Source: Escherichia phage AV109
DNA length: 64,000 nucleotides
Sequence record: OR352939.1
Strand: one strand, 5' to 3'
In this document: positions 25,384 through 41,381 of the stretch, piece by piece
How positions within the stretch are numbered: position 1 is the stretch's first letter
Layout of the letters: every line of letters starts with the position of its first letter
Notes under the pieces: generated by a model
What the model was told of the DNA's origin: nothing
What the model saw: the letters and a program-made list of their open reading frames with translations, nothing else
Database searches by the model: none
Made by a program: the position numbers and the translations under genes

Positions 25384-26195
25384 AATTCTAATTTATCCTT
25401 TTGAAATTCTTCGTCTAAATATGGGTTCCAACCCATTTTAAACCTTTTGATGAAATTATCAATTCTAAATTTCGGTAAATTTAACTCCGCAAAAATAGAT
25501 GATTTACTTTTAAAATCTGGACCTAAATAATCATATAAAATTTCTGCGTATTTTAACCATAATATATAAGTACCAGATTTAATTGCGTTCGGAGTTTTCC
25601 AAGGTTTTACACCATACATCGGATTTCCACTTCCTTTATGCCTGATAGAAGATGAAATTCCAATTTTAATTTTAGCTTCCTTTGTATGCGAAAATCCACG
25701 ATGCGGATTTTCTTTCCAGTATTTTTTAGCAGCTTCTGATATTTTCTTTCTGGCTAAATTAGTATGATGCTTTCCATAAAATCCATGATTTTTGCCTTTA
25801 TTACGATTTCTTTTAATCATGGTTATTGATTGCTTTTCTCTAGTTTCTTTAGAAGGAGAAATACCATATGTCGTAAATTTGCCATCAGCATATGCTAAAT
25901 TAAAATACTCTTTATTCCATACATCTTTTTCTATATTCTTTTGAAATTCAGCTTCAATGCTAGTTATTTGTTCATCTCCGACTAATTGAAAATATAATAT
26001 TTCAACTTTCGGCGTTTCTTTCAATAAGGCTTTTTGAAATTCGGAAGATGACGAAGACGAATAATAAAATTTACCATTTTTATCAATAATATTCGTTCCA
26101 TCAAAAGTGCAATTGGTTTTACTTCCAATGTAATAATATGGTGGGGTTTTAGCATTAATTCTATTAATAAATGATAGTTTATATACTACATTCAT
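25374..26195 (-). CDS. GIY-YIG-like seg-type homing endonuclease inserted between gene 49 and nrdD
   Basis: 273 aa; N-terminal VVYKLSF...YYYIGSK; ATGA overlap with gene 49 stop and 10-nt overlap with nrdD start. Confidence 0.55.
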   Translation of the reverse strand: MNVVYKLSFINRINAKTPPYYYIGSKTNCTFDGTNIIDKNGKFYYSSSSSSEFQKALLKETPKVEILYFQLVGDEQITSIEAEFQKNIEKDVWNKEYFNLAYADGKFTTYGISPSKETREKQSITMIKRNRNKGKNHGFYGKHHTNLARKKISEAAKKYWKENPHRGFSHTKEAKIKIGISSSIRHKGSGNPMYGVKPWKTPNAIKSGTYILWLKYAEILYDYLGPDFKSKSSIFAELNLPKFRIDNFIKRFKMGWNPYLDEEFQKDKLELCL

Positions 26196-26665
26196 TTTAA
26201 ACTCTTTCTAAGCTGCTTTTTGAATGAAGCTATTAATTGTGTTTTAGTATCAGATTCAGTATATTCAAATCCTCTTTGAAGCATCTCAGCCATCATTTCC
26301 TCTTTACCTAGTCTTGAGAACTCTTTAGTTTTGTCTGGAACAAAATTAGGATGGATATTATTATCAGAATAATCTTGTTTCAAATAAGCAAGAAGAGCTT
26401 CAAGCCATTCTAAGTAGTCAACGTTTTGACCTTTCAAACCGGAACGGTTGAACTTATGCTTCATTTGACCTTCTGCTGCGTTGCACAGATTACAGAGTAA
26501 TCCACGAACTCTACCGGCTTTTGGCCCGTTTAATTCATGGTCGTGGTCAAGATGGTTACCTTGAACATCAGGGTCTAATTCACGGTGGCAAATAGGACAC
26601 TTACCATTCTGTGCATCATAAAATTTTTGTTTTTCTTCTTTATATTTTGCGCCTGATAATAACAT
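26192..26665 (-). CDS. 49: endonuclease VII (Holliday junction resolvase)
   Basis: 157 aa; KFYDAQNGKCPICHRELDPDVQGNHLDHDHELNGPKAGRVRGLLCNLCNAAEGQMKHKFNRSGLKG matches T4 gp49. Confidence 0.96.
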   Translation of the reverse strand: MLLSGAKYKEEKQKFYDAQNGKCPICHRELDPDVQGNHLDHDHELNGPKAGRVRGLLCNLCNAAEGQMKHKFNRSGLKGQNVDYLEWLEALLAYLKQDYSDNNIHPNFVPDKTKEFSRLGKEEMMAEMLQRGFEYTESDTKTQLIASFKKQLRKSLK

Positions 26666-26706
26666 GATAAACCCTTACCTTTTAAATAGATAAGGGTATT
26701 TATAAT

Positions 26707-26904
26707 TTAGTAAACGTTATAAAAGTTACGATGAGAACGTTTAGCTTTGCGAAGCTGACGTTTAGTAGGACGAACTGTAAATGGTTGTCCAGAGAAAAAA
26801 TTCGGATCGGTTTTAATAAGCAAATACCAATCATGCTTGCCATTTTTTAATAAACGGTACAATAATTTAACTTGCATAATAATCTCTTCCCATTTCCATA
26901 TCAA
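26707..26904 (-). CDS. hypothetical protein (65 aa)
   Basis: ORF. Confidence 0.4.
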   Translation of the reverse strand: MIWKWEEIIMQVKLLYRLLKNGKHDWYLLIKTDPNFFSGQPFTVRPTKRQLRKAKRSHRNFYNVY

Positions 26905-27005
26905 TTAATTCATTTATTGAAGGTTCATCATAACATGTTTCTTCGTCGTTGTAAACTGTTTCGACGTCTGGCTCGACCGTCTCCCATCGAGCCGAATACC
27001 ACGGT

Positions 27006-27341
27006 TTAACCGCGGAGTTTATTGAGCTCTTCATAATCAACCCAGGATTCTAGCCCAGATGGCAAATCAGATTCAATTTCCCAAAGAAGCTCTTCAATGG
27101 CTTGCAGGCGATTATATTCTTCAACGGTAATGGTAACCATTGTTTCAGGCTTTTTAACCATCATGTCATTCATCAGAATATACAGGTCTTCACAAACAGC
27201 CGGGTCATCCCATGTCCATATTTCAGCATCTCGAACCAATGAAGTCGGAATCGAATTTAAAACTTCAAGCTTAGTAGGAGCGTCAGGGCCGAGAAGAGTT
27301 GCTACAAATTTATATGCTTTGGCGAAATCAATATCGTTCAT
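27006..27341 (-). CDS. hypothetical acidic protein (111 aa)
   Basis: ORF; 4-nt overlap with nrdC. Confidence 0.45.
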   Translation of the reverse strand: MNDIDFAKAYKFVATLLGPDAPTKLEVLNSIPTSLVRDAEIWTWDDPAVCEDLYILMNDMMVKKPETMVTITVEEYNRLQAIEELLWEIESDLPSGLESWVDYEELNKLRG

Positions 27342-27601
27342 TTAAAATATTCTCGCAGTTGGTCAAATCCACCAATGTGACTTCCATCAGGAGCAAACAC
27401 TTGAGGCATAGTCAATCCGACTTGTGATTCACGTCCAAGCTTAACCAGAAGCTCAGCAATTTTCTCATCATCGAACACACCTTTTTCTGGCATAACATTA
27501 ATGAATTCGAACGGCTGTTTCTTAACAGTCAGCAATCGTTTCGCATTATCACAATAAATGCATTTATGAATAGTAGAGTCATACCCGTACACTTTAAACA
27601 T
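27338..27601 (-). CDS. nrdC: thioredoxin/glutaredoxin NrdC
   Basis: MFKVYGYDSTIHKCIYCDNAKRLLTVKKQPFEFINVMPEKGVFDDEKIAELL matches T4 NrdC; track ORF has a 5-codon N-terminal extension. Confidence 0.9.
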   Translation of the reverse strand: MFKVYGYDSTIHKCIYCDNAKRLLTVKKQPFEFINVMPEKGVFDDEKIAELLVKLGRESQVGLTMPQVFAPDGSHIGGFDQLREYFK

Positions 27602-27737
27602 TATTTTTCCTTTCATCGATTAAATATGCAACGCCAAATACAATACATGTAATAAAACCTGTGATACAGATAGAAACCAACAACACCGTACCAAAGAACC
27701 AAATCAAGTTATCTTTAGTAGTTTGTTTGATATCCAT
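27594..27737 (-). CDS. possible small membrane protein (47 aa), not in ORF track
   Basis: MDIKQTTKDNLIWFFGTVLLVSICITGFITCIVFGVAYLIDERKNNV; stop overlaps nrdC start; weak SD. Confidence 0.3.
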   Translation of the reverse strand: MDIKQTTKDNLIWFFGTVLLVSICITGFITCIVFGVAYLIDERKNNV

Positions 27738-27788
27738 CTCACGAATTTCTATAGCTATCGTATCACCTTTATTCAGAAGCGTATAAAA

Positions 27789-28007
27789 CTAAGGTGATAC
27801 ATGCCTGTCAAAAACTCGTCCTTGCTCATCTTTATAGACTGCAATAAATTCTAATTTAGAATATTTTCCTGTAGATTGACCTGAAATTAATTCCACTACC
27901 TCCACAGGAATTACTTTAGTTTCCATGTAAGTATTCTGGCTGTTCCAAATGAATGGAATGATGGCAAAAACTAAAGCTGCGATAAAACAACGAAGGCTAT
28001 ATCTCAT
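27789..28007 (-). CDS. small membrane/secreted protein (72 aa)
   Basis: N-terminal hydrophobic segment CFIAALVFAIIPFIW. Confidence 0.45.
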   Translation of the reverse strand: MRYSLRCFIAALVFAIIPFIWNSQNTYMETKVIPVEVVELISGQSTGKYSKLEFIAVYKDEQGRVFDRHVSP

Positions 28008-28312
28008 TATAATGTTCTCTCAAATTTGTGGAAGCATTTACGGCATTTCAATTTCAAGTTATCGGTGGTCCAGTTAACCAGTTGGACTTGGATAGTTCCA
28101 CATTCCGGGCATGGATGTTTTGCTGCCGATTTGGCAGCATTTTCACGTCGTTCAACCATTTTCATTATTTCGTTCCATGCCGGAGGAACGAACTCTTCTT
28201 CACCGTGGATTTTATTTCTCTGAACAAATTCAATCTTTGAACTATCGTCAATAAACTTAACCAAGCGGTGATTAGTGTTCATATCAATATCCTCTAAAAG
28301 ACGTAGTTTCAT
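28007..28312 (-). CDS. zinc-ribbon protein (101 aa)
   Basis: CPECG...CRKC paired cysteines near C-terminus; TAATG overlap with upstream ORF. Confidence 0.5.
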   Translation of the reverse strand: MKLRLLEDIDMNTNHRLVKFIDDSSKIEFVQRNKIHGEEEFVPPAWNEIMKMVERRENAAKSAAKHPCPECGTIQVQLVNWTTDNLKLKCRKCFHKFERTL

Positions 28313-29262
28313 TATAAAACCTCAATGGCATTTCGTAAACCATCCGCTTTCGCATTCAGAGCTTTTAACGATTTAGTTTGTTCTGCAATCTGGGCTTCGA
28401 CTTCTTTAAGACGAGATTTGAGATATTCGCGTTCTTCTCTTAAGTTATCAACTTTTTCTGCTTTAGGTTCTTTAATAGTCTTAAGTTTATACCCGTTAGG
28501 GGACTTCAGCTTAATTCGGGTACGAGAACTGTATAACATTGAACCGTTATCTTCGGATTCGTCGAACGTTTCAACAACATCCATAGTCTCTAACAATGTA
28601 ATAAGTTTATAAGACAACGAACGAACGGTTTTGTTATGCTTATTAATTTCTTCGGCTTTCATGGTACCGAGATTACGTGAGTAGTAATAAGGAACCTGGA
28701 TATCAATTGACAATGATGCGTTACCATTACCAGTTGGTTTGAATACTGCAGTAACCCAATCTTTAACATGAACTTTATTTGTACGACCATCACCGCCTGT
28801 GAATAATTTACGAGAATGTTTAAAAAGCATATTCACTTGGTTATTGAATTCACAAGCAAATTTATCAACAAATTTAGTTTCAGGAATGGTAGATAACCAA
28901 TCAGCTAAATGAGTCTTTTTAACATCGTTAATAATAGTAAATTCAACCAAATCGGTTTTAGATGTCACAGATTTAATAAAGCTCGGCTTCATAAAGTTTT
29001 TAATGTTATCGCGAGCTACAGTAGAAGATAATAAACGAGAACGTTTGAACCATTGAAGCAGTGTCCCTAATGAATGAGAATACGCATTCTGAGTATCTTT
29101 ACAGATATGATTTTCTTGGCCTGTATATGTACCAAAATCTCGAAGAATACCACTTACTACATCTCGGTGTGGAACATCAAATCCTAGTGCACCAGAAGCG
29201 CGCTGAGCATGAACGTTAGCGATAAGACCGGCAAAGTATTCAATGTAATGTGAACGTGTCAT
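28312..29262 (-). CDS. hypothetical protein with C-terminal coiled coil (316 aa)
   Basis: ORF with SD GAGAGGAAAA; C-terminal heptad-like REEREYLKSRLKEVEAQIAEQTKSLKALNAKADGLRNAIEVL. Confidence 0.55.
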   Translation of the reverse strand: MTRSHYIEYFAGLIANVHAQRASGALGFDVPHRDVVSGILRDFGTYTGQENHICKDTQNAYSHSLGTLLQWFKRSRLLSSTVARDNIKNFMKPSFIKSVTSKTDLVEFTIINDVKKTHLADWLSTIPETKFVDKFACEFNNQVNMLFKHSRKLFTGGDGRTNKVHVKDWVTAVFKPTGNGNASLSIDIQVPYYYSRNLGTMKAEEINKHNKTVRSLSYKLITLLETMDVVETFDESEDNGSMLYSSRTRIKLKSPNGYKLKTIKEPKAEKVDNLREEREYLKSRLKEVEAQIAEQTKSLKALNAKADGLRNAIEVL

Positions 29263-29319
29263 AATATTTTCCTCTCGTTAAGATAGAAAGATTATACTCC
29301 AACCATCCTTGGTTGTACA

Positions 29320-30315
29320 TCATTCCTTAAGAAGTTTTACTACCTGAATAAGATTAGCTCGTTCTGTTTTATTTTTACCGTTTAAGCCTGCTAATCGTGA
29401 GATTTCATCGTCGGTCTGTTGAATAGTTACATTAAGTTCGTTAATCAAAGCTTCAAAGTATTTGATTTGCTCAGCATGTTTTGATTCAAATTTCTGAACC
29501 GGAATAACGTCTTGGTTTAGTTCATCAATAAGGTCTTTAAGAGCATCTTCTTGGTTGATATCATATTCAACTTCTTTTATTTCTTCAACAAGCTCGTCTT
29601 TATATCTAACGTCTTTTAGTCCTGGGATCGGGCCTAAAATCTCTTCTTTAAGAGTACAAACATATCCAATACGGTATCCAATGCCGTCTCGCTTGATATC
29701 AACTTCGTCGATAAATCCACAATGTTTAAAACCAGAGCCGATTAGGTCAAAATATCCTTGACGTCGTCCTTCAAACGTTACACGAACTACTAAGATGGTT
29801 TTGCCACCAACCTTTTGAAGCTCACATTTATAAAAGTCTGTTGAACCTGAATAACGTGGATGAGTTTTAAAGTTCATCTGACGATCTAGGCCCATTTGTA
29901 AACGTGCTGTTACGGCCAGAAAACGTGTTTGGTTCTCGTTAAGATGAGCAACAATCCATTTCAAAGGCATTTTACCATGTTCACGACCGAACAAATCAGT
30001 ACGTCCTAAATTACGCAGGATATTGTTAGAGTTAATCATCGACAGAACGTTAAGTTTATTCAGCGCGCTGAAGATTCCATCGGCCATTGATTTTCCGTAA
30101 CCTTTACATGCTTTAATAAGCGCTCGCGGTAGATTAGTATAGATTTCAGACGGCATATGAAAATCAAATTTACTAGTCAGTAATTGATGAACTTGGATAG
30201 CAATTTGTTCATAATTAAGTGCTCTGCGATCGTTATGGTCTTTAAACCACACTTTAATCTGTGAAGCACATAAACCGTTAATTTCATGTTTTACCGCATC
30301 AGATGTAATGCTCAT
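29320..30315 (-). CDS. hypothetical protein with C-terminal coiled coil (331 aa)
   Basis: ORF with SD GAGGAAA; same architecture as the preceding ORF. Confidence 0.55.
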   Translation of the reverse strand: MSITSDAVKHEINGLCASQIKVWFKDHNDRRALNYEQIAIQVHQLLTSKFDFHMPSEIYTNLPRALIKACKGYGKSMADGIFSALNKLNVLSMINSNNILRNLGRTDLFGREHGKMPLKWIVAHLNENQTRFLAVTARLQMGLDRQMNFKTHPRYSGSTDFYKCELQKVGGKTILVVRVTFEGRRQGYFDLIGSGFKHCGFIDEVDIKRDGIGYRIGYVCTLKEEILGPIPGLKDVRYKDELVEEIKEVEYDINQEDALKDLIDELNQDVIPVQKFESKHAEQIKYFEALINELNVTIQQTDDEISRLAGLNGKNKTERANLIQVVKLLKE

Positions 30316-30377
30316 AACTATTTCCTCAGATTGAATTGGAATTCAAAACCATTATAACCCGTCCTTGGGTAAAGCGT

Positions 30378-30905
30378 TTATGCGTGAACCGTCTTTAAAC
30401 GTTCTTCAAATTTCCGAAGAGTACTAATACGTTCTGCTTTCTGTTTTGTATAGTTTGCAATACGTTCTGAAGTGAGAGCGTATCGTTCGTTTACTGATTC
30501 TTTCATGAAGTCAGGGATTTCACGAGAAGCTTTAATTTCATCAAACTTATCGAGTACTGCCTGGTCTTCAGCGATTAAATTTTCGTACATCTCGATATCT
30601 TTCTTGATAAACTCGATATCTTCCTGGGTTACTTTGGATAAACGAGATGCTTTATCCTTTTTGTACTGCTCGTTAGTTTCACGAGACCAGAATAATGTAC
30701 GTTTTTTGTTAGTGTTTTTGTAGACTTCCACAATTCCAACTGAATCGATGATAACAATCCAATTCCAGCGAGATTTGAAAATCTGACCTCCGTCCACGGT
30801 AATCTCGTTACCATAAGCAATGTCATTAAAGAACTTACTTTGTGCTTCAGATTTAAATTTACCGTCGTTATAATTTACCAGGTTGAAAATATCTTTAGCG
30901 TTCAT
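30378..30905 (-). CDS. hypothetical protein (175 aa)
   Basis: ORF with SD GGAGGT. Confidence 0.55.
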   Translation of the reverse strand: MNAKDIFNLVNYNDGKFKSEAQSKFFNDIAYGNEITVDGGQIFKSRWNWIVIIDSVGIVEVYKNTNKKRTLFWSRETNEQYKKDKASRLSKVTQEDIEFIKKDIEMYENLIAEDQAVLDKFDEIKASREIPDFMKESVNERYALTSERIANYTKQKAERISTLRKFEERLKTVHA

Positions 30906-30932
30906 GTTTTACCTCCAGTAGTTGATAGGTCT

Positions 30933-30961
30933 ATAATAACATAACCATAGACCTTGTAAAC
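30933..30961 (-). promoter_or_regulatory. T4-type early promoter
   Basis: Minus strand GTTTAC, 17 nt, TATTAT, then SD GGAGGT and ATG at 30905. Confidence 0.5.
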
Positions 30962-30963
30962 AA

Positions 30964-31251
30964 CTAAAAGAAACTTTTTTCGGTATTTTTTCCACTGAAC
31001 CAAACAGACTTCGGGATTTTTTGTAATTTTTCAGATTTAAGTTTCTCTTCCTGTTCTTTCTTATATACACCCTTGTCGTACTGGAGCATCTCTATGGCAT
31101 TCTTTTGCAAACGATCTAAGGTAATTAAGGCTTTAGTTTTTCCTTTCAAGGAAGAGTCTTGGCGAACCTCCTCGCTATATTGCATCGTAGAACTAACCAT
31201 ACGATGAGCATACAGTTCTACTGCGGCTTTAATTTTTTGCATAAAATCCAT
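30964..31251 (-). CDS. hypothetical protein (95 aa)
   Basis: ORF. Confidence 0.4.
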   Translation of the reverse strand: MDFMQKIKAAVELYAHRMVSSTMQYSEEVRQDSSLKGKTKALITLDRLQKNAIEMLQYDKGVYKKEQEEKLKSEKLQKIPKSVWFSGKNTEKSFF

Positions 31252-31427
31252 AACATATCCTCTTTGATTTGTACATCATTATTTTTAAATATTTCTATGC
31301 CCTCAGTAGGTTCCTGGTGTCCTTCTTTGAGGTAAGCCATATGATTATTCATCTTTATGGCTTTTGTTACCTCAGAACTTCCTATAAAGCTTATTTCAGT
31401 AAAGTAACTTCCGAGATTTCTTCCCAA
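31218..31427 (-). CDS. possible small ORF overlapping both neighbours
   Basis: Overlaps flanking ORFs; weak. Confidence 0.25.
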   Translation of the reverse strand: MGRNLGSYFTEISFIGSSEVTKAIKMNNHMAYLKEGHQEPTEGIEIFKNNDVQIKEDMLWILCKKLKPQ

Positions 31428-32371
31428 CCATCTTTATCAGTTGAAATAAAATCTGCTACATAAAGAGCCGTACGTAATGATACATTGCGAAGACGAGATA
31501 CGTTAGCCTTCATCCAGGACAATGCTTTGTACGTTTCTGCATCCGTCAGGCCACGTTTCTGCATCATGTCAGTAGATAATATTACATCTTCAACTCGAAC
31601 CATAATCTCTTCATTAGAGTGTACTCCAAGGTCGAGATACACTGAACGAGATACTAAAGCTTGAAGGTGTGGAGCAAGTTTCGAACCCCGTTCTAACTCT
31701 TTATCGATATCAACGTTTGTAATGAAAACGATAGTACCTTCAAACTCAAATTCTTTATCAATACCCTTATCCTCGAGATAAGATGACGCAGTGCTCCAAC
31801 AAACTTTGCGTTTATCTCCGGTATCTAATGCTGCTTTAAGAAGATTCAAGATGTCCATATCTGAGAATACGTCAACGTCGTCGATTAAGAGAACGCTGTC
31901 TGCATCACGGTTGAGCCAAAGTTGTTCGTAAAGGCCAATACCAGAGATTTTACCATTAATACTTTTGTATTTGATGAAACCATTATCATTAGCATTATTA
32001 AGTGCTTTATCCAGAGAATACGTCTTACCAATACCTGCTGCACCTGAAATAATGAGTGAACGAATTTTGCCATCAATAATGCCATTCGTCATCATGTTCA
32101 TTACTTTAAAGCGTTTGTTGATACGAGTTTTCATATCTTCAGTGCTTTCAGCAACTGCAACTGGTGATGTCTCAACTCCTTCCATTACGATGTCTGATTT
32201 GAAGACCCATACTCCACGTTCAGAACCATCAATCATAACGAAAATTTTACCATCACCTAAGTGGGAACATTCAGGATTAAGCTTTGCCGGGAACCAGGTC
32301 TTTGTGGCAACATAAGAACCAGAGATTTCGTTATTACGATAGATACCTTTTTTGATTTGAACGTTGAACAT
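31391..32371 (-). CDS. P-loop NTPase with an N-terminal extra domain
   Basis: Walker A ISGAAGIGKT, Walker B VLLIDDVD; ATG at 32371 with SD GGAG (track start 32383 is TTG). Confidence 0.65.
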   Translation of the reverse strand: MFNVQIKKGIYRNNEISGSYVATKTWFPAKLNPECSHLGDGKIFVMIDGSERGVWVFKSDIVMEGVETSPVAVAESTEDMKTRINKRFKVMNMMTNGIIDGKIRSLIISGAAGIGKTYSLDKALNNANDNGFIKYKSINGKISGIGLYEQLWLNRDADSVLLIDDVDVFSDMDILNLLKAALDTGDKRKVCWSTASSYLEDKGIDKEFEFEGTIVFITNVDIDKELERGSKLAPHLQALVSRSVYLDLGVHSNEEIMVRVEDVILSTDMMQKRGLTDAETYKALSWMKANVSRLRNVSLRTALYVADFISTDKDGWEEISEVTLLK

Positions 32372-32410
32372 TTTATTCTCCAAATTTACTCATTTCGTTT
32401 CGATAGGTCT

Positions 32411-32439
32411 ATAATAACATGTTTAAAGCAAAAGTAAAC
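32411..32439 (-). promoter_or_regulatory. T4-type early promoter
   Basis: Minus strand GTTTAC, 17 nt, TATTAT, SD GGAG. Confidence 0.5.
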
Positions 32440-32441
32440 AA

Positions 32442-32660
32442 TTATTTGCGACGAGATTTTTTGGTAAGAGGTTGAAAGAACACTGCTTTACCAGCAGGAG
32501 TCAAAGTGACTCGTAATGCATTACCGATTCCCAAGGATGCTTTAACCAGACCTTTAGATTTCAGTTCACCGAATGCTTGACGTTGGTCTGCATCACGAGT
32601 GTTAACCATAAGACCTTTATCACCAGCTTCACGAATCATTTCTAACATTTTGGTTTTCAT
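32442..32660 (-). CDS. hypothetical basic protein (about 72 aa)
   Basis: Start MKTKMLEMI with SD GGAGAA; track ORF extends upstream into the promoter. Confidence 0.45.
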   Translation of the reverse strand: MKTKMLEMIREAGDKGLMVNTRDADQRQAFGELKSKGLVKASLGIGNALRVTLTPAGKAVFFQPLTKKSRRK

Positions 32661-32688
32661 TTTGTTCTCCTCTTGTTTTGATAGGTCT

Positions 32689-32717
32689 ATAATAACATAT
32701 CCTAAAAGCATGTACAC
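32689..32717 (-). promoter_or_regulatory. early promoter variant (GTGTAC -35, TATTAT -10)
   Basis: Same gataggtctataataacat core as the promoters at 30933 and 32411. Confidence 0.4.
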
Positions 32718-32763
32718 TACTTTTTAAAAATATTTGACCCCCTAAAGGGCCCGAAGGCCCTTA

Positions 32764-33753
32764 TCATTTATAGTATGAATTGTGGTTTTCTAAGTAGACT
32801 TGCTCAAGAAAGTCATCCCAGAAACTCATATCTACTTTTTGCTGCATACCATTCTTTGCGGCTTGTTCTGCCGCATGTTCAACTTGGTCAACGATATCTT
32901 CTAGGAATTCCTGTACGGTTTTAAACGTATGTTTACCAAGCTTAACATCGAGAATAAATGGAGCATCCTGAAGCGGGTAAACCAGGTCGCCAGTTTTGTA
33001 AATTTCTAAGAGCTGAAGTCCACCACGGCATGCATGACTCAATGCTTTCCAATCAATACCTTCATTGGCTTCTGCCTTACGAGCACGTTCACCATAGTTC
33101 TCTTCAAGTTTAACCAGGATGGCATTGAACTCTTTGTTAGTTAACGTATCTTGGAATTTACGGTCCAACAGACTATAAAATGTTTGCTTACCTGTTTTCT
33201 CGTTTTCGGTTTCAACCCATGAAGCAAATTCACCTATAGGCAGAACATTCTTCATATGGGATAAACGAATTACTGCACCATTATCAAAGTATTGTCCCCA
33301 TTCATTAGAACGTTTAAGGGCTTGACGAAGAACAGCCAGTCGAGAACCCTTGACACCGTATTTAGAAGCTTGCTTACGGACATACCCTAAATAAGATTTC
33401 ATGTTAGTAGTATAGAAACGAGACCTGTTATCTTGAATATACTTCCATACATCAGGCAAATCAGATTTAACTACTAGACTTTGTGGAGTGTGAAGCATAT
33501 CTAATGCGACGGTTTCACCATCCGCAGCTAGTTTAAAGAAATATTTGAGACTGTACAACTCATGGTCCACGTCGTCTTTTGTGTTCTTAGAAGATGTGTT
33601 ATTCGTGTTCTTGCTCATGTGTTCTTTAACGTTACCGGTCAAAATATCACGAGCATGAGGGACATAAATTTCTTTAAAATCGATGTCAGATTCAGGAGTA
33701 GACGTTCCATAAAGGTGGCTACCAAAGTAAGCCTTAACAATCGTTTTCATCAT
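32764..33753 (-). CDS. nucleotidyltransferase-fold protein (pol-beta superfamily signature)
   Basis: 329 aa; N-terminal YFGSHLYGTSTPESDIDF fits the G[SG]x9-13Dh[DE]h motif; ATGA coupling with upstream gene. Confidence 0.5.
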   Translation of the reverse strand: MMKTIVKAYFGSHLYGTSTPESDIDFKEIYVPHARDILTGNVKEHMSKNTNNTSSKNTKDDVDHELYSLKYFFKLAADGETVALDMLHTPQSLVVKSDLPDVWKYIQDNRSRFYTTNMKSYLGYVRKQASKYGVKGSRLAVLRQALKRSNEWGQYFDNGAVIRLSHMKNVLPIGEFASWVETENEKTGKQTFYSLLDRKFQDTLTNKEFNAILVKLEENYGERARKAEANEGIDWKALSHACRGGLQLLEIYKTGDLVYPLQDAPFILDVKLGKHTFKTVQEFLEDIVDQVEHAAEQAAKNGMQQKVDMSFWDDFLEQVYLENHNSYYK

Positions 33754-34145
33754 TTAGCCTTATATTCAAGAGTAGGACAGACTTTTTCTTTACGAACTTT
33801 AAGGTATTCGCCTATTAATGATTTCTTACGTTCAATAGGCTCCAGTCCATTTTTAATTCGTTCTTGGTTTTGTGCAATGAGCTCAATTTCTTTATAATAT
33901 TTTCTGTCGTTATATTTGTCTAACAACCAAGACGGACCAATTACTAACCCGGTAGCAATAAAAGCCATGACTGCTACACTTAAAATGCCTACACCAATTG
34001 AGGCTGGAACTAATGTCCATAGACTGCTAAAAACAAAGAATTTAGTTAAAATTTCATGGCCAATGATTGTGACTGCTGCTAAAATCGCAAATCCAATAAT
34101 TGAAGCAGCCAATACCGGGATTAACGTTTTCCAAAATAAGCACAC
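33750..34145 (-). CDS. membrane protein (131 aa)
   Basis: Hydrophobic segments IPVLAASIIGFAILAAVTIIG and VPASIGVGILSVAVMAFIATGLVIG. Confidence 0.5.
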   Translation of the reverse strand: MCLFWKTLIPVLAASIIGFAILAAVTIIGHEILTKFFVFSSLWTLVPASIGVGILSVAVMAFIATGLVIGPSWLLDKYNDRKYYKEIELIAQNQERIKNGLEPIERKKSLIGEYLKVRKEKVCPTLEYKAK

Positions 34146-34231
34146 AACGTTTTCGGACGATTCCGTGTACTATTGAACGCGGCATAAATTTTAAAATGCC
34201 AAGAGTTTTCATTGATAATCATAATAATTCC

Positions 34232-34774
34232 TTATTTCAAAGTTGGGATAATAGAATCGAGATAAGCTTTAAGAGCAACTGCTTCATCTTTGTCTAATGT
34301 AATGATATGTTGACGAAGGTCATCAATTTGGCGAATAACTACGACATCACCGTCTTCATAAGAAGGATTAACTCCCAGGACTGTTGTATAGTCAGGGCGG
34401 TCCTGATTTGTAATAAAAGCATTACGGCATTTAGCCCATTGAAGTTTGGCCTTTTTGGCTGTTTCAGATTCAATGAATTCTTTCACCTTAGCGACAAATG
34501 TTTTCCAATTATTAATAGAAAAACATTCATCTTCGGTTTCGATATTAACCCCACTATAAAGTCCGTGATAAAAACGAACTTGAAGGTCTTCATCAATGTT
34601 AATTACAGATGCATGACCGGGTGGATTGAGTTTCAAAATCTTGTCTAGTTCCATAGGAAGAATAGTAACAACATCATCTTCTTGCGTCAGAACGTACGCA
34701 TAACCACGTTTTTCGATACATAAATCACCAAACAACTCAGTCGTTTCAATTACAGTTTTCATATTATTCACCAA
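34232..34774 (-). CDS. hypothetical protein (180 aa)
   Basis: ORF. Confidence 0.5.
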   Translation of the reverse strand: MVNNMKTVIETTELFGDLCIEKRGYAYVLTQEDDVVTILPMELDKILKLNPPGHASVINIDEDLQVRFYHGLYSGVNIETEDECFSINNWKTFVAKVKEFIESETAKKAKLQWAKCRNAFITNQDRPDYTTVLGVNPSYEDGDVVVIRQIDDLRQHIITLDKDEAVALKAYLDSIIPTLK

Positions 34775-34874
34775 TTAAAGTTTCAACAAAATTCACCAAA
34801 TCATTCTGACGAGCATCAACCTGATTTCTATAAAAACTAAATAAGATCCATCAATTTATTAGCTTGTTCACGGG

Positions 34875-34985
34875 TCATTTTACCATACTCGCTTCAATAA
34901 GATTCATTACACCATTTACCATGTTATACGTAAACATCGGATAATTGTATTGTACTACAACATAAGCGATAAGCAAAAGTTTCAT
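34875..34985 (-). CDS. possible small ORF (36 aa), not in ORF track
   Basis: ATG at 34985 preceded by SD GGAGAA and an early promoter; MKLLLIAYVVVQYNYPMFTYNMVNGVMNLIEASMVK. Confidence 0.35.
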   Translation of the reverse strand: MKLLLIAYVVVQYNYPMFTYNMVNGVMNLIEASMVK

Positions 34986-35013
34986 TTTGTTCTCCATTTG
35001 TTTTTGTAGGACT

Positions 35014-35043
35014 ACTATAACATAGTCCTACCAAGTTGTAAAC
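35014..35043 (-). promoter_or_regulatory. T4-type early promoter with 9-bp inverted repeat flanking the -10
   Basis: Minus strand GTTTAC, 18 nt, TATAGT; gtaggacta...tagtcctac palindrome. Confidence 0.5.
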
Positions 35044-35252
35044 TACCGATTGTGTTTTAAATGTTGATAAAGTTCTTCAACTTGTTTAGGATCCAAAACA
35101 ATTAAGTCATTTTCTTGACGAAGATAAATCCATCCCTTATCCCCAGGGCCATTTTTACAAAACATCACCGTCGCCATATCGTCATCTTCAACGCTTTCAG
35201 GTAAAAGTTCAAGTACACCATCTTCGGATTTTCCAGTATAATCGTAAAGCAT
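35043..35252 (-). CDS. hypothetical acidic protein (about 69 aa)
   Basis: Internal Met with SD GAGGA is the likelier start; track ORF extends to 35279. Confidence 0.4.
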   Translation of the reverse strand: MLYDYTGKSEDGVLELLPESVEDDDMATVMFCKNGPGDKGWIYLRQENDLIVLDPKQVEELYQHLKHNR

Positions 35253-35326
35253 AATATCCTCACATAATCTCGTTAACATACATTTGTAATTCGGTGTGCG
35301 TATCAGCCATCTTTTTCATAGCTCTG

Positions 35327-35440
35327 TTAATGTCGATGTCTCCATCTTCGCAACCATGAGCATTTTCCCCAATCGGATACAGCGTTAGCGTACTCTTCAA
35401 TCAAAAACATTAACTTAGAAATTTTTTCTTTACGTGACAT
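35327..35440 (-). CDS. possible small ORF (37 aa), not in ORF track
   Basis: ATG at 35440 with strong SD GAGGAGAA downstream of an early promoter. Confidence 0.35.
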   Translation of the reverse strand: MSRKEKISKLMFLIEEYANAVSDWGKCSWLRRWRHRH

Positions 35441-35467
35441 AACGTTCTCCTCTAGTAAGTAAGGTCT

Positions 35468-35496
35468 ACTATAACACAACCTGAGGAGAAGTAAAC
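35468..35496 (-). promoter_or_regulatory. T4-type early promoter whose spacer carries the complement of the downstream SD
   Basis: Minus strand GTTTAC, TTCTCCTC in spacer, TATAGT, then GAGGAGAA SD. Confidence 0.5.
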
Positions 35497-35505
35497 TGCT
35501 AAATG

Positions 35506-37310: not shown

Positions 37311-37493
37311 TTATAGTGAATTCACGTAGTCAATGAGTTCTTGTTCTTTCCTGTCAAATGATTCCATCAATGCGTGATATTCTTCGTCCGTCAAAGGAGC
37401 ATATTCATCATACGCATTGGTGGCTGCTTGTTCATCCAATAGGTCATGGATAAGTTCGAACAGTTTAGCTTTCTCTTCTTTAGTTAATTTCAT
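37311..37493 (-). CDS. hypothetical acidic protein (60 aa)
   Basis: ORF. Confidence 0.4.
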   Translation of the reverse strand: MKLTKEEKAKLFELIHDLLDEQAATNAYDEYAPLTDEEYHALMESFDRKEQELIDYVNSL

Positions 37494-37984
37494 TTAGGTT
37501 CCCAATCAACAATCACAATTTCTAGTTTAGTGGAATACGTATCTAAAATCTCTTCGATGACATCCCAGTTTCCACCACCAATACCTGCACCAATTCTTGG
37601 CATATAAATTACAGGCTTTGTTATCTTATTCTTTCCGAATTCATTTAATTCTATTATACAATTCATTAAAGCAGAGTACTCAAAATTAGGTCCCGGCTCA
37701 AACTGTGTATAAAGATTAAAGCAATAAGCTTTATGGGTCTTAAAATATTTTTCATAAACCGAATAAGTCCCGAGTTTAGACTTGTCTCCGAATTCGGTTT
37801 GAAGTTTATCGGCTTCCAGAATTTTTGGATAAGCCTTTGCTAATTGTCCTGCCACACCAGCGCCCATTGTATGAAAACAATTACACCCGTGAGCAATATT
37901 ATTACCTTTAGAAAACAGGGCGACAATATCGCCCTTGATATAGTTTTTAATCACTTGCTGCAAGTCCTCTAGTATAAGAGTCAA
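37490..37984 (-). CDS. macro-domain protein (ADP-ribose binding/processing)
   Basis: 164 aa; GNNIAHGCNCFHTMGAGVAGQLAKAYP and GAGIGGGNW motifs typical of macro domains. Confidence 0.7.
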   Translation of the reverse strand: MTLILEDLQQVIKNYIKGDIVALFSKGNNIAHGCNCFHTMGAGVAGQLAKAYPKILEADKLQTEFGDKSKLGTYSVYEKYFKTHKAYCFNLYTQFEPGPNFEYSALMNCIIELNEFGKNKITKPVIYMPRIGAGIGGGNWDVIEEILDTYSTKLEIVIVDWEPK

Positions 37985-38294
37985 CTAGACGGTCCACCAT
38001 AGAATTGCATGCTGCCTTATCTTTAGGTTCCGCCACCGAGCATTCTAATATTTGCCATTTTTTATAGTATCTTTTAATTAAGGTAGATGCCTTGAACCTA
38101 CTAGACACCCCATCTTTTTCTCCGTCTTTATACGCATATAACAATTTTTGTGAAAAATCTACTTTACACTCTCGACTTTTACCACAATAATCAGACGCCG
38201 TTCTGTTTGTATACTCCGTTACATCAGTATATGTAGTATTAGCAAGAGCGTTAAATGAAACCAAGCCAACTATTAAAGCCAACATTTTGGTCAT
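37947..38294 (-). CDS. secreted/periplasmic protein with signal peptide (115 aa)
   Basis: N-terminal MTKMLALIVGLVSFNALA; four Cys. Confidence 0.45.
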   Translation of the reverse strand: MTKMLALIVGLVSFNALANTTYTDVTEYTNRTASDYCGKSRECKVDFSQKLLYAYKDGEKDGVSSRFKASTLIKRYYKKWQILECSVAEPKDKAACNSMVDRLVDSYTRGLAASD

Positions 38295-40057: not shown

Positions 40058-40419
40058 TATAGACTCTCAGTAAAGGTACGAGCGATAACGTCGCGCTGCT
40101 GTTCCGGAGTCAGAGAGTTAAAGCGAACTGCATAACCGGATACACGGATGGTCAGCTGCGGATATTTTTCTGGATGCTTAACTGCATCTTCTAGAGTTTC
40201 ACGACGCAGAACGTTAACGTTCAGATGTTGACCACCTTCAATTTTAACTTTAGGTTGATGTTCAATTTCAATTTCACGGGCATTCAAACCGTAGAAAATT
40301 TCCGGGTCTACAATAGCGTCTTCTTTAAAAGTCTTAGAGACAATAATCCGGGCTTGAGTACCGTCTTCAAAATAAATAGTGCCTTTATGTGCACCTTCAA
40401 GAATTTGATATGCTTTCAT
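40057..40419 (-). CDS. autonomous glycyl-radical cofactor GrcA/YfiD-like protein
   Basis: 120 aa; C-terminal [63 protein letters not shown] carries the glycyl-radical RVSGYAV motif and closely matches E. coli GrcA as I recall it. Confidence 0.85.
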
Positions 40420-40425
40420 ATAACC

Positions 40426-40734
40426 TCAGTTAGAAAATAAATTTATCCAAGTTTTTTCTTTAATCAAAAATGGGTCGGAATTAAACGCCATTAAACTTTG
40501 AGTGATTAATCCCTTAAATGGCCCATCAATAAATTCCATTTTGAAATGCGGAATACTAGTCATCAACCGTGCATTAGGAGCAGTACAAAGAACCTGCTGC
40601 CCTGCGAACGGTCCTTTAGTCAAACGGTATCGTTTAGGTTTAAAATGGTAAATCTCGTAATTTTCTACAAGAGCCATTTTATTGCATACTTGGCTGTTAT
40701 AACAATATTCAAAAACTTCAATAGTGGTCATCAT
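40426..40734 (-). CDS. hypothetical protein (102 aa)
   Basis: ORF. Confidence 0.45.
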   Translation of the reverse strand: MMTTIEVFEYCYNSQVCNKMALVENYEIYHFKPKRYRLTKGPFAGQQVLCTAPNARLMTSIPHFKMEFIDGPFKGLITQSLMAFNSDPFLIKEKTWINLFSN

Positions 40735-41270
40735 TGCATTCCAATCACAAAAAATTGAGGACGAGCATTACCGCCGATGCAATATTTGCTTTTGCAACAG
40801 TGTTGGACTGTTTTAATATGTACATTGTAAATCTTATCCATATCAGGAGCTTTAATAGGCTCGTCAATTATGTACAGAATACGAGAAAGCGTTAATCCAC
40901 GGAATTTAGAACCTTCATTGCCAATAAAACTACGAACAGAATCAGTAAATAAACGGAATCGAATATCGTCGCTAGAATAACGAGAAAATTCTTTTTTAAT
41001 GTTGCCGGCAGAAATTTTAGCATAAGCTGAAGTATTAGAAAGAACAATAACTGTTCCACCATCATACAGCCAATTAACAGCAAAATTAGTTACTGCGGTC
41101 GATTTACCTGATTGTCTGCCGCCGTCTAAACGAAGTGTACAGTACTGCTTGAGTACGTCTTCAAATGGTGGGACATAACCGTTCTTACAAATTTCTTCTA
41201 CTCTAGCATCAGAATGGTGTGTAAAAGCATTCATCAGGGATAGATAAGGACCAGTTAAAAATGTTCTCAT
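40731..41270 (-). CDS. P-loop protein (179 aa), function unknown
   Basis: Walker A-like GGRQSGKST; 4-nt overlap with downstream ORF. Confidence 0.5.
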   Translation of the reverse strand: MRTFLTGPYLSLMNAFTHHSDARVEEICKNGYVPPFEDVLKQYCTLRLDGGRQSGKSTAVTNFAVNWLYDGGTVIVLSNTSAYAKISAGNIKKEFSRYSSDDIRFRLFTDSVRSFIGNEGSKFRGLTLSRILYIIDEPIKAPDMDKIYNVHIKTVQHCCKSKYCIGGNARPQFFVIGMQ

Positions 41271-41351
41271 TTAGTTTCTCTTTTAGGTTGGGCCATTCCG
41301 TGGCGCATGAATTGTCCATTTCTGTATTTACCCCTCCAAGTAATTATGAAT

Positions 41352-41381
41352 ATACTATCACAATTCTAGGAGAAAGTAAAC
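41352..41381 (-). promoter_or_regulatory. early-promoter-like element
   Basis: Minus strand GTTTAC, about 18 nt, TAGTAT. Confidence 0.35.

Follow-up and report, generated by a model that had tools for sequence, protein, structure and literature searches.

A gene in the nrdC-tk region of a T4-like phage was found to encode an RlaP-family nucleotidyltransferase, the ortholog of T4 NrdC.11, with conserved catalytic residues. Its most probable role is in phage tRNA repair, where it may add one or a few nucleotides to RNA 3′ ends without a template (probability about 0.6). The gene lies in the window, by which we mean the whole stretch of DNA that was analysed (64,000 nucleotides from Escherichia phage AV109, OR352939.1). 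An initial annotation, made from the sequence alone, had described a pol-beta-type active-site signature, an ATGA link to an upstream membrane-protein gene and a possible anti-defence role. Its observations proved largely correct. Of its interpretation, the fold was right, but neither the coupling to the membrane protein nor a part in signalling was supported.

The nucleotidyltransferase gene and its relation to RlaP

The region from 31000 to 35500 of the window was 100% identical to the record of Escherichia phage AV114 (OR352944.1), which is T4-like and classified as Straboviridae, Tevenvirinae, Mosigvirus. The T4 nrdC-tk gene order was kept, and the minus strand carries all of its genes: nrdD, gene 49, nrdC, the nrdC.x genes, rI, tk, vs and regB. 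The target ORF (Table 1) encodes a protein of 329 aa with the N-terminus MMKTIVKAYFGSHLYGTSTPESDIDF; in many annotations of this gene the second ATG (33750) is taken as the start, giving 328 aa. The protein was aligned with T4 NrdC.11 (NP_049709; 'uncharacterized 38.9 kDa protein in nrdC-mobD intergenic region') and showed 77.4% identity across its full length (337 columns). T4 and AV114 share the order nrdC.8-nrdC.9-nrdC.10-nrdC.11 ... rI-tk, and the target locus is arranged as in T4, with nrdC.10 downstream and the mobD.1/y05I-like gene upstream, followed by rI and tk. The target is the ortholog of T4 NrdC.11.

Table 1. Positions of the analysed features in the window.
Feature	Position	Strand	Basis
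Nucleotidyltransferase gene, T4 NrdC.11 ortholog, 'long' RlaP-family branch (PF10127)	32764..33753	-	ORF, Pfam, PHROG, T4 identity, AF2 model
Codons 11-25, GSHLYGTSTPESDID: hG[GS] motif and first two catalytic carboxylates D23, D25	33679..33723	-	A3, hhalign
Codon D63, probable third catalytic carboxylate	33565..33567	-	A3 nearly invariant; modelled strand 62-68; aligns to D82
Codon D85, conserved acidic residue, helix 81-87	33499..33501	-	A3 nearly invariant; aligns to E104
GC-rich hairpin AAGGGCC-UUCG-GGCCCUU	32745..32762	-	Terminator-like scan, fold energy
3′ part of PHROG 944 membrane-protein gene, 131-aa ORF from internal GTG	33750..34145	-	TGA overlaps target ATG; hydropathy
5′ fragment of the same membrane-protein gene: conserved ATG, 33 codons (MIINENSWHFKIYAAFNSTRNRPKTLCAYFGKR), stop	34121..34222	-	Translation; alignment to SHSML-52-1, RB27
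Four-T run, frameshift site (relatives: five T)	34133..34136	-	DNA alignment
Second nucleotidyltransferase-fold protein, 318 aa	46136..47092	-	Pfam DUF7277 + DUF7275, PHROG 2141 ('unknown')

Pfam PF10127 (RlaP) matched the protein with 49.3 bits (cut-off 23, E 6.8e-13), the match spanning residues 7-136 only and model positions 23-143 of 249, and PHROG 388 'nucleotidyltransferase' matched it with an E value of 4e-126. Homologues were detected by tblastn in 1520 phage records, nearly all of them T4-like, and an exhaustive HMMER search gave a family of 3290 clusters (50% identity) at E ≤ 1e-3. The conservation of single residues was then read from an alignment (A3) of 75 diverse homologues with 34-52% identity, collected by a search of representative sequences. 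Invariant positions were G11, S12, S22, D23, D25, Y132, K236, R243 and G273, while D61, D63 and D85 were nearly invariant. The pol-beta signature of the initial annotation was thereby confirmed, with its glycine, serine and two aspartates among the invariant positions, and the nucleotidyltransferase motif of the target is not a product of chance.

The expected fold was recovered as well. An AlphaFold2 model made from the 75-sequence alignment had a pLDDT of 93.6 and a pTM of 0.82, and predicts with confidence a pol-beta nucleotidyltransferase fold. In the model, the N-terminal alpha/beta domain contains strands 3-10, 24-31, 45-49 and 62-68; the GS pair ends strand 1, D23 and D25 open strand 2, and D63 is placed on strand 4. 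The chain continues with a long helix (119-155) and, after a beta-hairpin inserted at 177-201, ends in a C-terminal domain that is helical. When the model was compared with the PDB by Foldseek, the matches were weak and the top ones were all nucleotidyltransferases, with KNTase first (E 1.7e-3), then 3c18 and HalB. Comparison with the CD-NTase, MNT and CCA-adding folds had been proposed at the outset; the top matches fell within the nucleotidyltransferases, and no CD-NTase, cGAS or CCA-adding enzyme was among the matches listed. The terminal RNA nucleotidyltransferases Cid1 and CutA stood far down the same list, with probabilities of at most 0.08. The target did not carry the PolyA_pol domain (PF01743) or a related head together with the neck and body domains of class I/II CCA-adding enzymes and poly(A) polymerases. 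Searching the PDB by sequence, with the single target protein and with profiles A3 and A5, returned nothing meaningful.

The long branch, to which the target belongs, was compared with canonical short RlaP (PF10127 cluster 1a), a member of the same Pfam family. The hhalign probability was 93.8% (E 1.8e-7), over residues 2-131 only, and in this alignment GS, D23, D25, D63 and D85 of the target were paired with the invariant S30/G31, D43, D45, D82 and E104 of canonical RlaP; pairwise BLAST between long and short forms found the GS...DxD motif only. Given this profile match and the aligned catalytic positions, all within residues 2-131, the target is a genuine but divergent RlaP, in which D63 probably serves as the third catalytic carboxylate. 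The target is about 70 residues longer than canonical RlaP, and the N-terminal 130 residues alone align. Past residue 131, the C-terminal half (beta-hairpin 177-201 included) showed no sequence or profile similarity to canonical RlaP. The C-terminal half of P. fluorescens RlaP (PfRlaP), helical in the crystal structure, forms the RNA/NTP cleft; the target model has a helical C-terminal domain, without detectable sequence similarity.

The nucleotidyltransferase call is correct but not new. A match of nrdC.11 orthologues to the nucleotidyltransferase domain COG3541 dates from 2006 (PMC1524935), the RlaP naming is found in a preprint of December 2025, which explicitly assigns T4 NrdC.11 to cluster 5 in a similarity network of PF10127 (PMC12776372), and RefSeq labels T4 NrdC.11 'nucleotidyltransferase'. 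In the GenBank record of AV114, about ten different nrdC.x genes (window positions 26000-33800) are called 'thioredoxin', the nucleotidyltransferase and the AAA ATPase included, and the same mislabelling was found in many other phage records. The label is wrong for the target gene, and such labels appear to have been taken over from the T4 gene names.

The flanks of the gene were also analysed. Two bases past its TGA stop lies a GC-rich hairpin followed by a U-rich stretch. The hairpin folds at -13.4 kcal/mol, not significantly better than shuffled sequence (z-score -1.27), and is probably a transcript-end or stabilising hairpin. No promoter was assigned because the sites found by the promoter scan were no more frequent than in shuffled sequence. 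The nrdC.10 ortholog (31391-32383, minus strand) encodes a 330-aa P-loop/AAA-like ATPase of PHROG 1250 (function unknown), with weak matches to Pfam AAA_22 and AAA_16. It gave no NCBIfam match and, in PADLOC, a chance-level match to SspF only (E 0.02), and its linkage to the nucleotidyltransferase was confined to Tevenvirinae and Klebsiella phages.

RNA-repair context and the proposed function

In order to place the family in its cellular context, one genome per prokaryotic species was scanned, giving 193 relatives, and the best 80 loci were examined (33-52% identity, full length). About 30 of these 80 bacterial and archaeal loci had short RlaP, RtcB, RtcA, Hen1, Pnkp or Ro60 within 5 kb, a figure that is a lower bound because many of the contigs were short. 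Canonical short RlaP was encoded directly downstream on the same strand in 21 of the 80; this paralogue has about 255-290 aa and matches PF10127 over its whole length with 175-247 bits. RtcB was present at 9 loci, Ro60/TROVE at 5, Hen1 at 4 and a Pnkp ligase domain at 2. On one Nitrosospira contig (L037, 558-11060), Ro60, RtcB, RtcA, the long nucleotidyltransferase, short RlaP, Hen1, an AAA_5 ATPase and DUF2201 were found together, and another locus (L073, 4482-10685) contained the long nucleotidyltransferase, short RlaP, Hen1 and Pnkp. Both the target type and canonical RlaP thus occur in RNA-repair gene contexts, and the tandem arrangement of long and short forms suggests distinct, non-redundant roles. 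The phage nrdC.10-like ATPase was considered as the counterpart of the AAA_5 ATPase of the bacterial cassette, and this was rejected, as the P-loop alone matches.

On the phage side, AV114 has the healing and sealing enzymes of T4 type, Pnk (record 37389-38288) and RNA ligase 1 (record 40241-41365). Among jumbo phages RlaP and RNA ligases have matching distributions, and RlaP was predicted there to replace nucleotides that RNA ends have lost, for instance through RloC (PMC7824862). The RlaP proteins of P. fluorescens and P. aeruginosa (PfRlaP and PaRlaP) put one or two NMP on the 3′-OH of RNA, with Mn2+ preferred, and act on neither DNA nor protein. They prefer a cleaved-tRNA mimic and partly restore the aminoacylation of tRNA missing one nucleotide (PMC12776372). 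RlaP biochemistry is known for these two enzymes only, and both belong to cluster 1a, not to the cluster of NrdC.11 (PMC12776372).

Because RNA-repair genes recur beside the cellular orthologues and AV114 has Pnk and RNA ligase 1, tRNA repair rather than signalling is the best reading of the gene. Where this reading names a substrate, a number of added nucleotides and a target in vivo, it draws on the biochemistry of the canonical Pseudomonas enzymes and on gene context. Pnk would act first and leave 3′-OH and 5′-phosphate ends, the 3′-OH being needed by RlaP-type enzymes. The NrdC.11-type enzyme would act between Pnk and RNA ligase 1. With D23, D25 and D63 and two divalent metal ions, it would transfer one or a few NMPs from NTPs to the 3′-OH of the broken RNA, template-free, and in this way may refill nucleotides trimmed from the cleaved tRNA by RloC-type host anticodon nucleases. 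RNA ligase 1 would then join the 3′-OH to the 5′-phosphate to give a usable tRNA.

Several observations weigh against tRNA repair. The enzymes of known biochemistry come from another cluster than NrdC.11, similarity between the two types ends at residue 131, and their tandem occurrence in bacteria speaks for non-redundant roles. In AV114, pnk and rnlA lie about 90 kb from the nucleotidyltransferase gene, and no RNA ligase was found next to the target in the phage, where it is flanked by the nrdC.10-like ATPase, small ORFs and the membrane-protein gene. The closest solved structure to the target is HalB, a DNA-synthesising enzyme. Moreover, the nrdC.11-mobD.3 region was lost in a genome-reduced T4 that is viable (PMC9825161), so the gene has no laboratory phenotype.

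The main rival to tRNA repair with Pnk and RNA ligase 1 is that the enzyme mends or marks the 3′ ends (CCA region) of host or phage tRNAs, or other RNA 3′ ends, independently of these two enzymes and not at anticodon-loop breaks. The separation of the target gene from pnk and rnlA in AV114 would fit this, as would the finding that PfRlaP, with little specificity for the NTP, labels full-length tRNAs and rRNAs when given total E. coli RNA (PMC12776372). In Rheinheimera phage Barba19A, a non-T4-like phage, the gene for a class II tRNA CCA-adding enzyme is followed, two genes downstream, by that for a homologue of the target (28% identity; L010:2247-4900), which counts for the tRNA-repair reading and also speaks for action at the acceptor end. 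[quoted passage not shown] On balance, action at the acceptor end is unlikely. There is little probability that the enzyme nucleotidylylates a protein or a small molecule, such as a host factor (by AMPylation) or an antibiotic-like compound, as MNT, GlnE, DrrA and the aminoglycoside nucleotidyltransferases do.

The upstream membrane-protein gene and signalling systems

In the initial annotation, the target gene was coupled to an upstream gene for a two-TM membrane protein through an ATGA overlap. The overlap is real, since the junction (...AAG GCT AAA TGA, in the other frame ATG ATG AAA) carries TGA and ATG in overlapping frames. The functional coupling, on the other hand, was not supported: the upstream gene carries a frameshift in this genome, T4 has mobD in its place, and in other genera it is non-adjacent or distant. 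The 131-aa protein does contain two hydrophobic blocks, at residues 1-34 and 36-76, but two or three TM helices are possible because the second block is about 40 residues long, and the GTG-initiated ORF is the 3′ part of a split 157-aa gene.

In relatives the membrane-protein gene is intact, with 157 aa in SHSML-52-1 and 153 aa in Tequatrovirus RB27 (~46-48% identity). Their start ATG directly follows the y05I-like gene and corresponds to window position 34222. In the window the conserved frame ends after 33 codons because four T are present in place of five, and the 131-aa ORF is the remainder. The y05I-like ORF (34232-34774, minus strand), immediately upstream of the disrupted gene, is the ortholog of T4 MobD.1 and encodes a putative transcription factor (Pfam T4_y05I_N and T4_y05I_C). 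A 61-mer over the frameshift site was searched by megablast: among the 104 matching phage records AV114 alone was identical, and the next best differed at 1 position. Exact 31-mer scans of IMG/VR found the frameshifted form in 0 contigs and the intact form in 2, too few to inform. Two explanations fit the four-T run: the gene was recently inactivated, or the homopolymer was misread in sequencing.

The distribution of the neighbouring gene was compared among phages. The PHROG 944 membrane protein was present in 1115 phage records, and in Mosigvirus and Tequatrovirus RB27 its gene immediately precedes that of the nucleotidyltransferase. While AV114 has the membrane-protein gene in this position, T4 has the homing endonuclease gene mobD, and a homologue of the membrane protein is absent from the T4 region. 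In Klebsiella phage Mexia the membrane gene is upstream with two small genes (~0.6 kb) between, in Klebsiella phage 15882-3-3 it is about 1.2 kb upstream, and in Aeromonas phage avDM7 it is 76 kb from the nucleotidyltransferase. Cronobacter GAP161, Vibrio VH7D and Rheinheimera Barba19A showed no homologue at distances of up to 4 kb. Since the linkage of the membrane gene and of the nrdC.10-like ATPase is limited to some phages, only the nucleotidyltransferase forms a conserved unit. Genes in the early regions of T4-like phages are typically packed tightly, and the ATGA overlap is a sign of this; the membrane gene is an adjacent gene, and its partnership with the nucleotidyltransferase is not supported.

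The target was also compared with signalling nucleotidyltransferases. HalB of the Hailong system (PDB 9dbh) synthesises oligodeoxyadenylate; it is thus a DNA-making enzyme, primed from its own tyrosine, and unlike the target it has 217 aa and no C-terminal domain, with 15% identity between the two. A HalB family match together with a HalA-type membrane effector partner was not found for the target, whose membrane neighbour is neither conserved nor intact, and similarity to CD-NTase, SMODS or cGAS was likewise not detected. The nucleotidyltransferase, the membrane protein and the second nucleotidyltransferase described below all lacked a match in NCBIfam and PADLOC, and for the first two PADLOC was searched with E up to 10. 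It is therefore very improbable that the enzyme is a Hailong-like or other signalling or anti-defence nucleotidyltransferase working with a membrane protein, for example through an oligonucleotide that gates or decoys a membrane effector, and the cellular orthologues lie in RNA-repair operons, not beside membrane effectors. The signalling or nucleotide-modifying anti-defence role first suggested for the protein is not supported.

A second nucleotidyltransferase and possible implications for phage RNA repair

A second, supposedly weaker signature had been reported in the 318-aa protein, which starts MMLVIGSRAL...SDWDF. The signature is present but not weak: G6, S7, D25, D27 and E69 were invariant in 52 homologues (down to 47% identity), and they coincide exactly with the hG[GS], DxD and hEh positions that a minimal nucleotidyltransferase has. 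The protein combines the hG[GS], [DE]x[DE] and h[DE]h motifs of the pol-beta superfamily with its core fold, which is that of a MenT-, ANT(2'')- or LnuA-like nucleotidyltransferase. It differs from the MenT/AbiEii-type tRNA nucleotidyltransferase toxins in its own C-terminal domain, which is large and conserved. At the sequence level its families are DUF7277 and DUF7275 only, and no mention of either was found in the literature searched. It occurs in 733 phage records from several phage groups, and the T4 e-tRNA region has no gene of its size (judged by gene size). In the window its gene is about 2 kb from a phage tRNA-Met gene. Kinship between the two nucleotidyltransferases of the window was considered and rejected (hhalign probability 0.3%). 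The DUF7277/DUF7275 protein represents a real nucleotidyltransferase family and is the more novel item compared with the NrdC.11 ortholog.

For the NrdC.11 ortholog itself, the value of the finding is mainly corrective. The gene belongs to a recognised family, it is mislabelled 'thioredoxin', and its apparent membrane partner is not conserved. The tRNA-repair reading, on the other hand, bears on a well-known system, as the RNA repair of T4, in which Pnk and RNA ligase 1 oppose PrrC, is the founding example of a phage-host arms race at the RNA level. If NrdC.11-type enzymes refill trimmed tRNA ends, this pathway would gain a step, carried by about 1500 sequenced T4-like phages. A further, tentative proposal is that long RlaP is a distinct enzyme and the missing third component beside Pnk and RNA ligase 1 in T4-like phages, restoring the wobble nucleotide removed by RloC-type anticodon nucleases. 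A distinct long RlaP would explain why long and short forms stand in tandem in bacteria. An old idea holds that RloC arose in order to overcome phage repair, and this would then become a testable three-step arms race.
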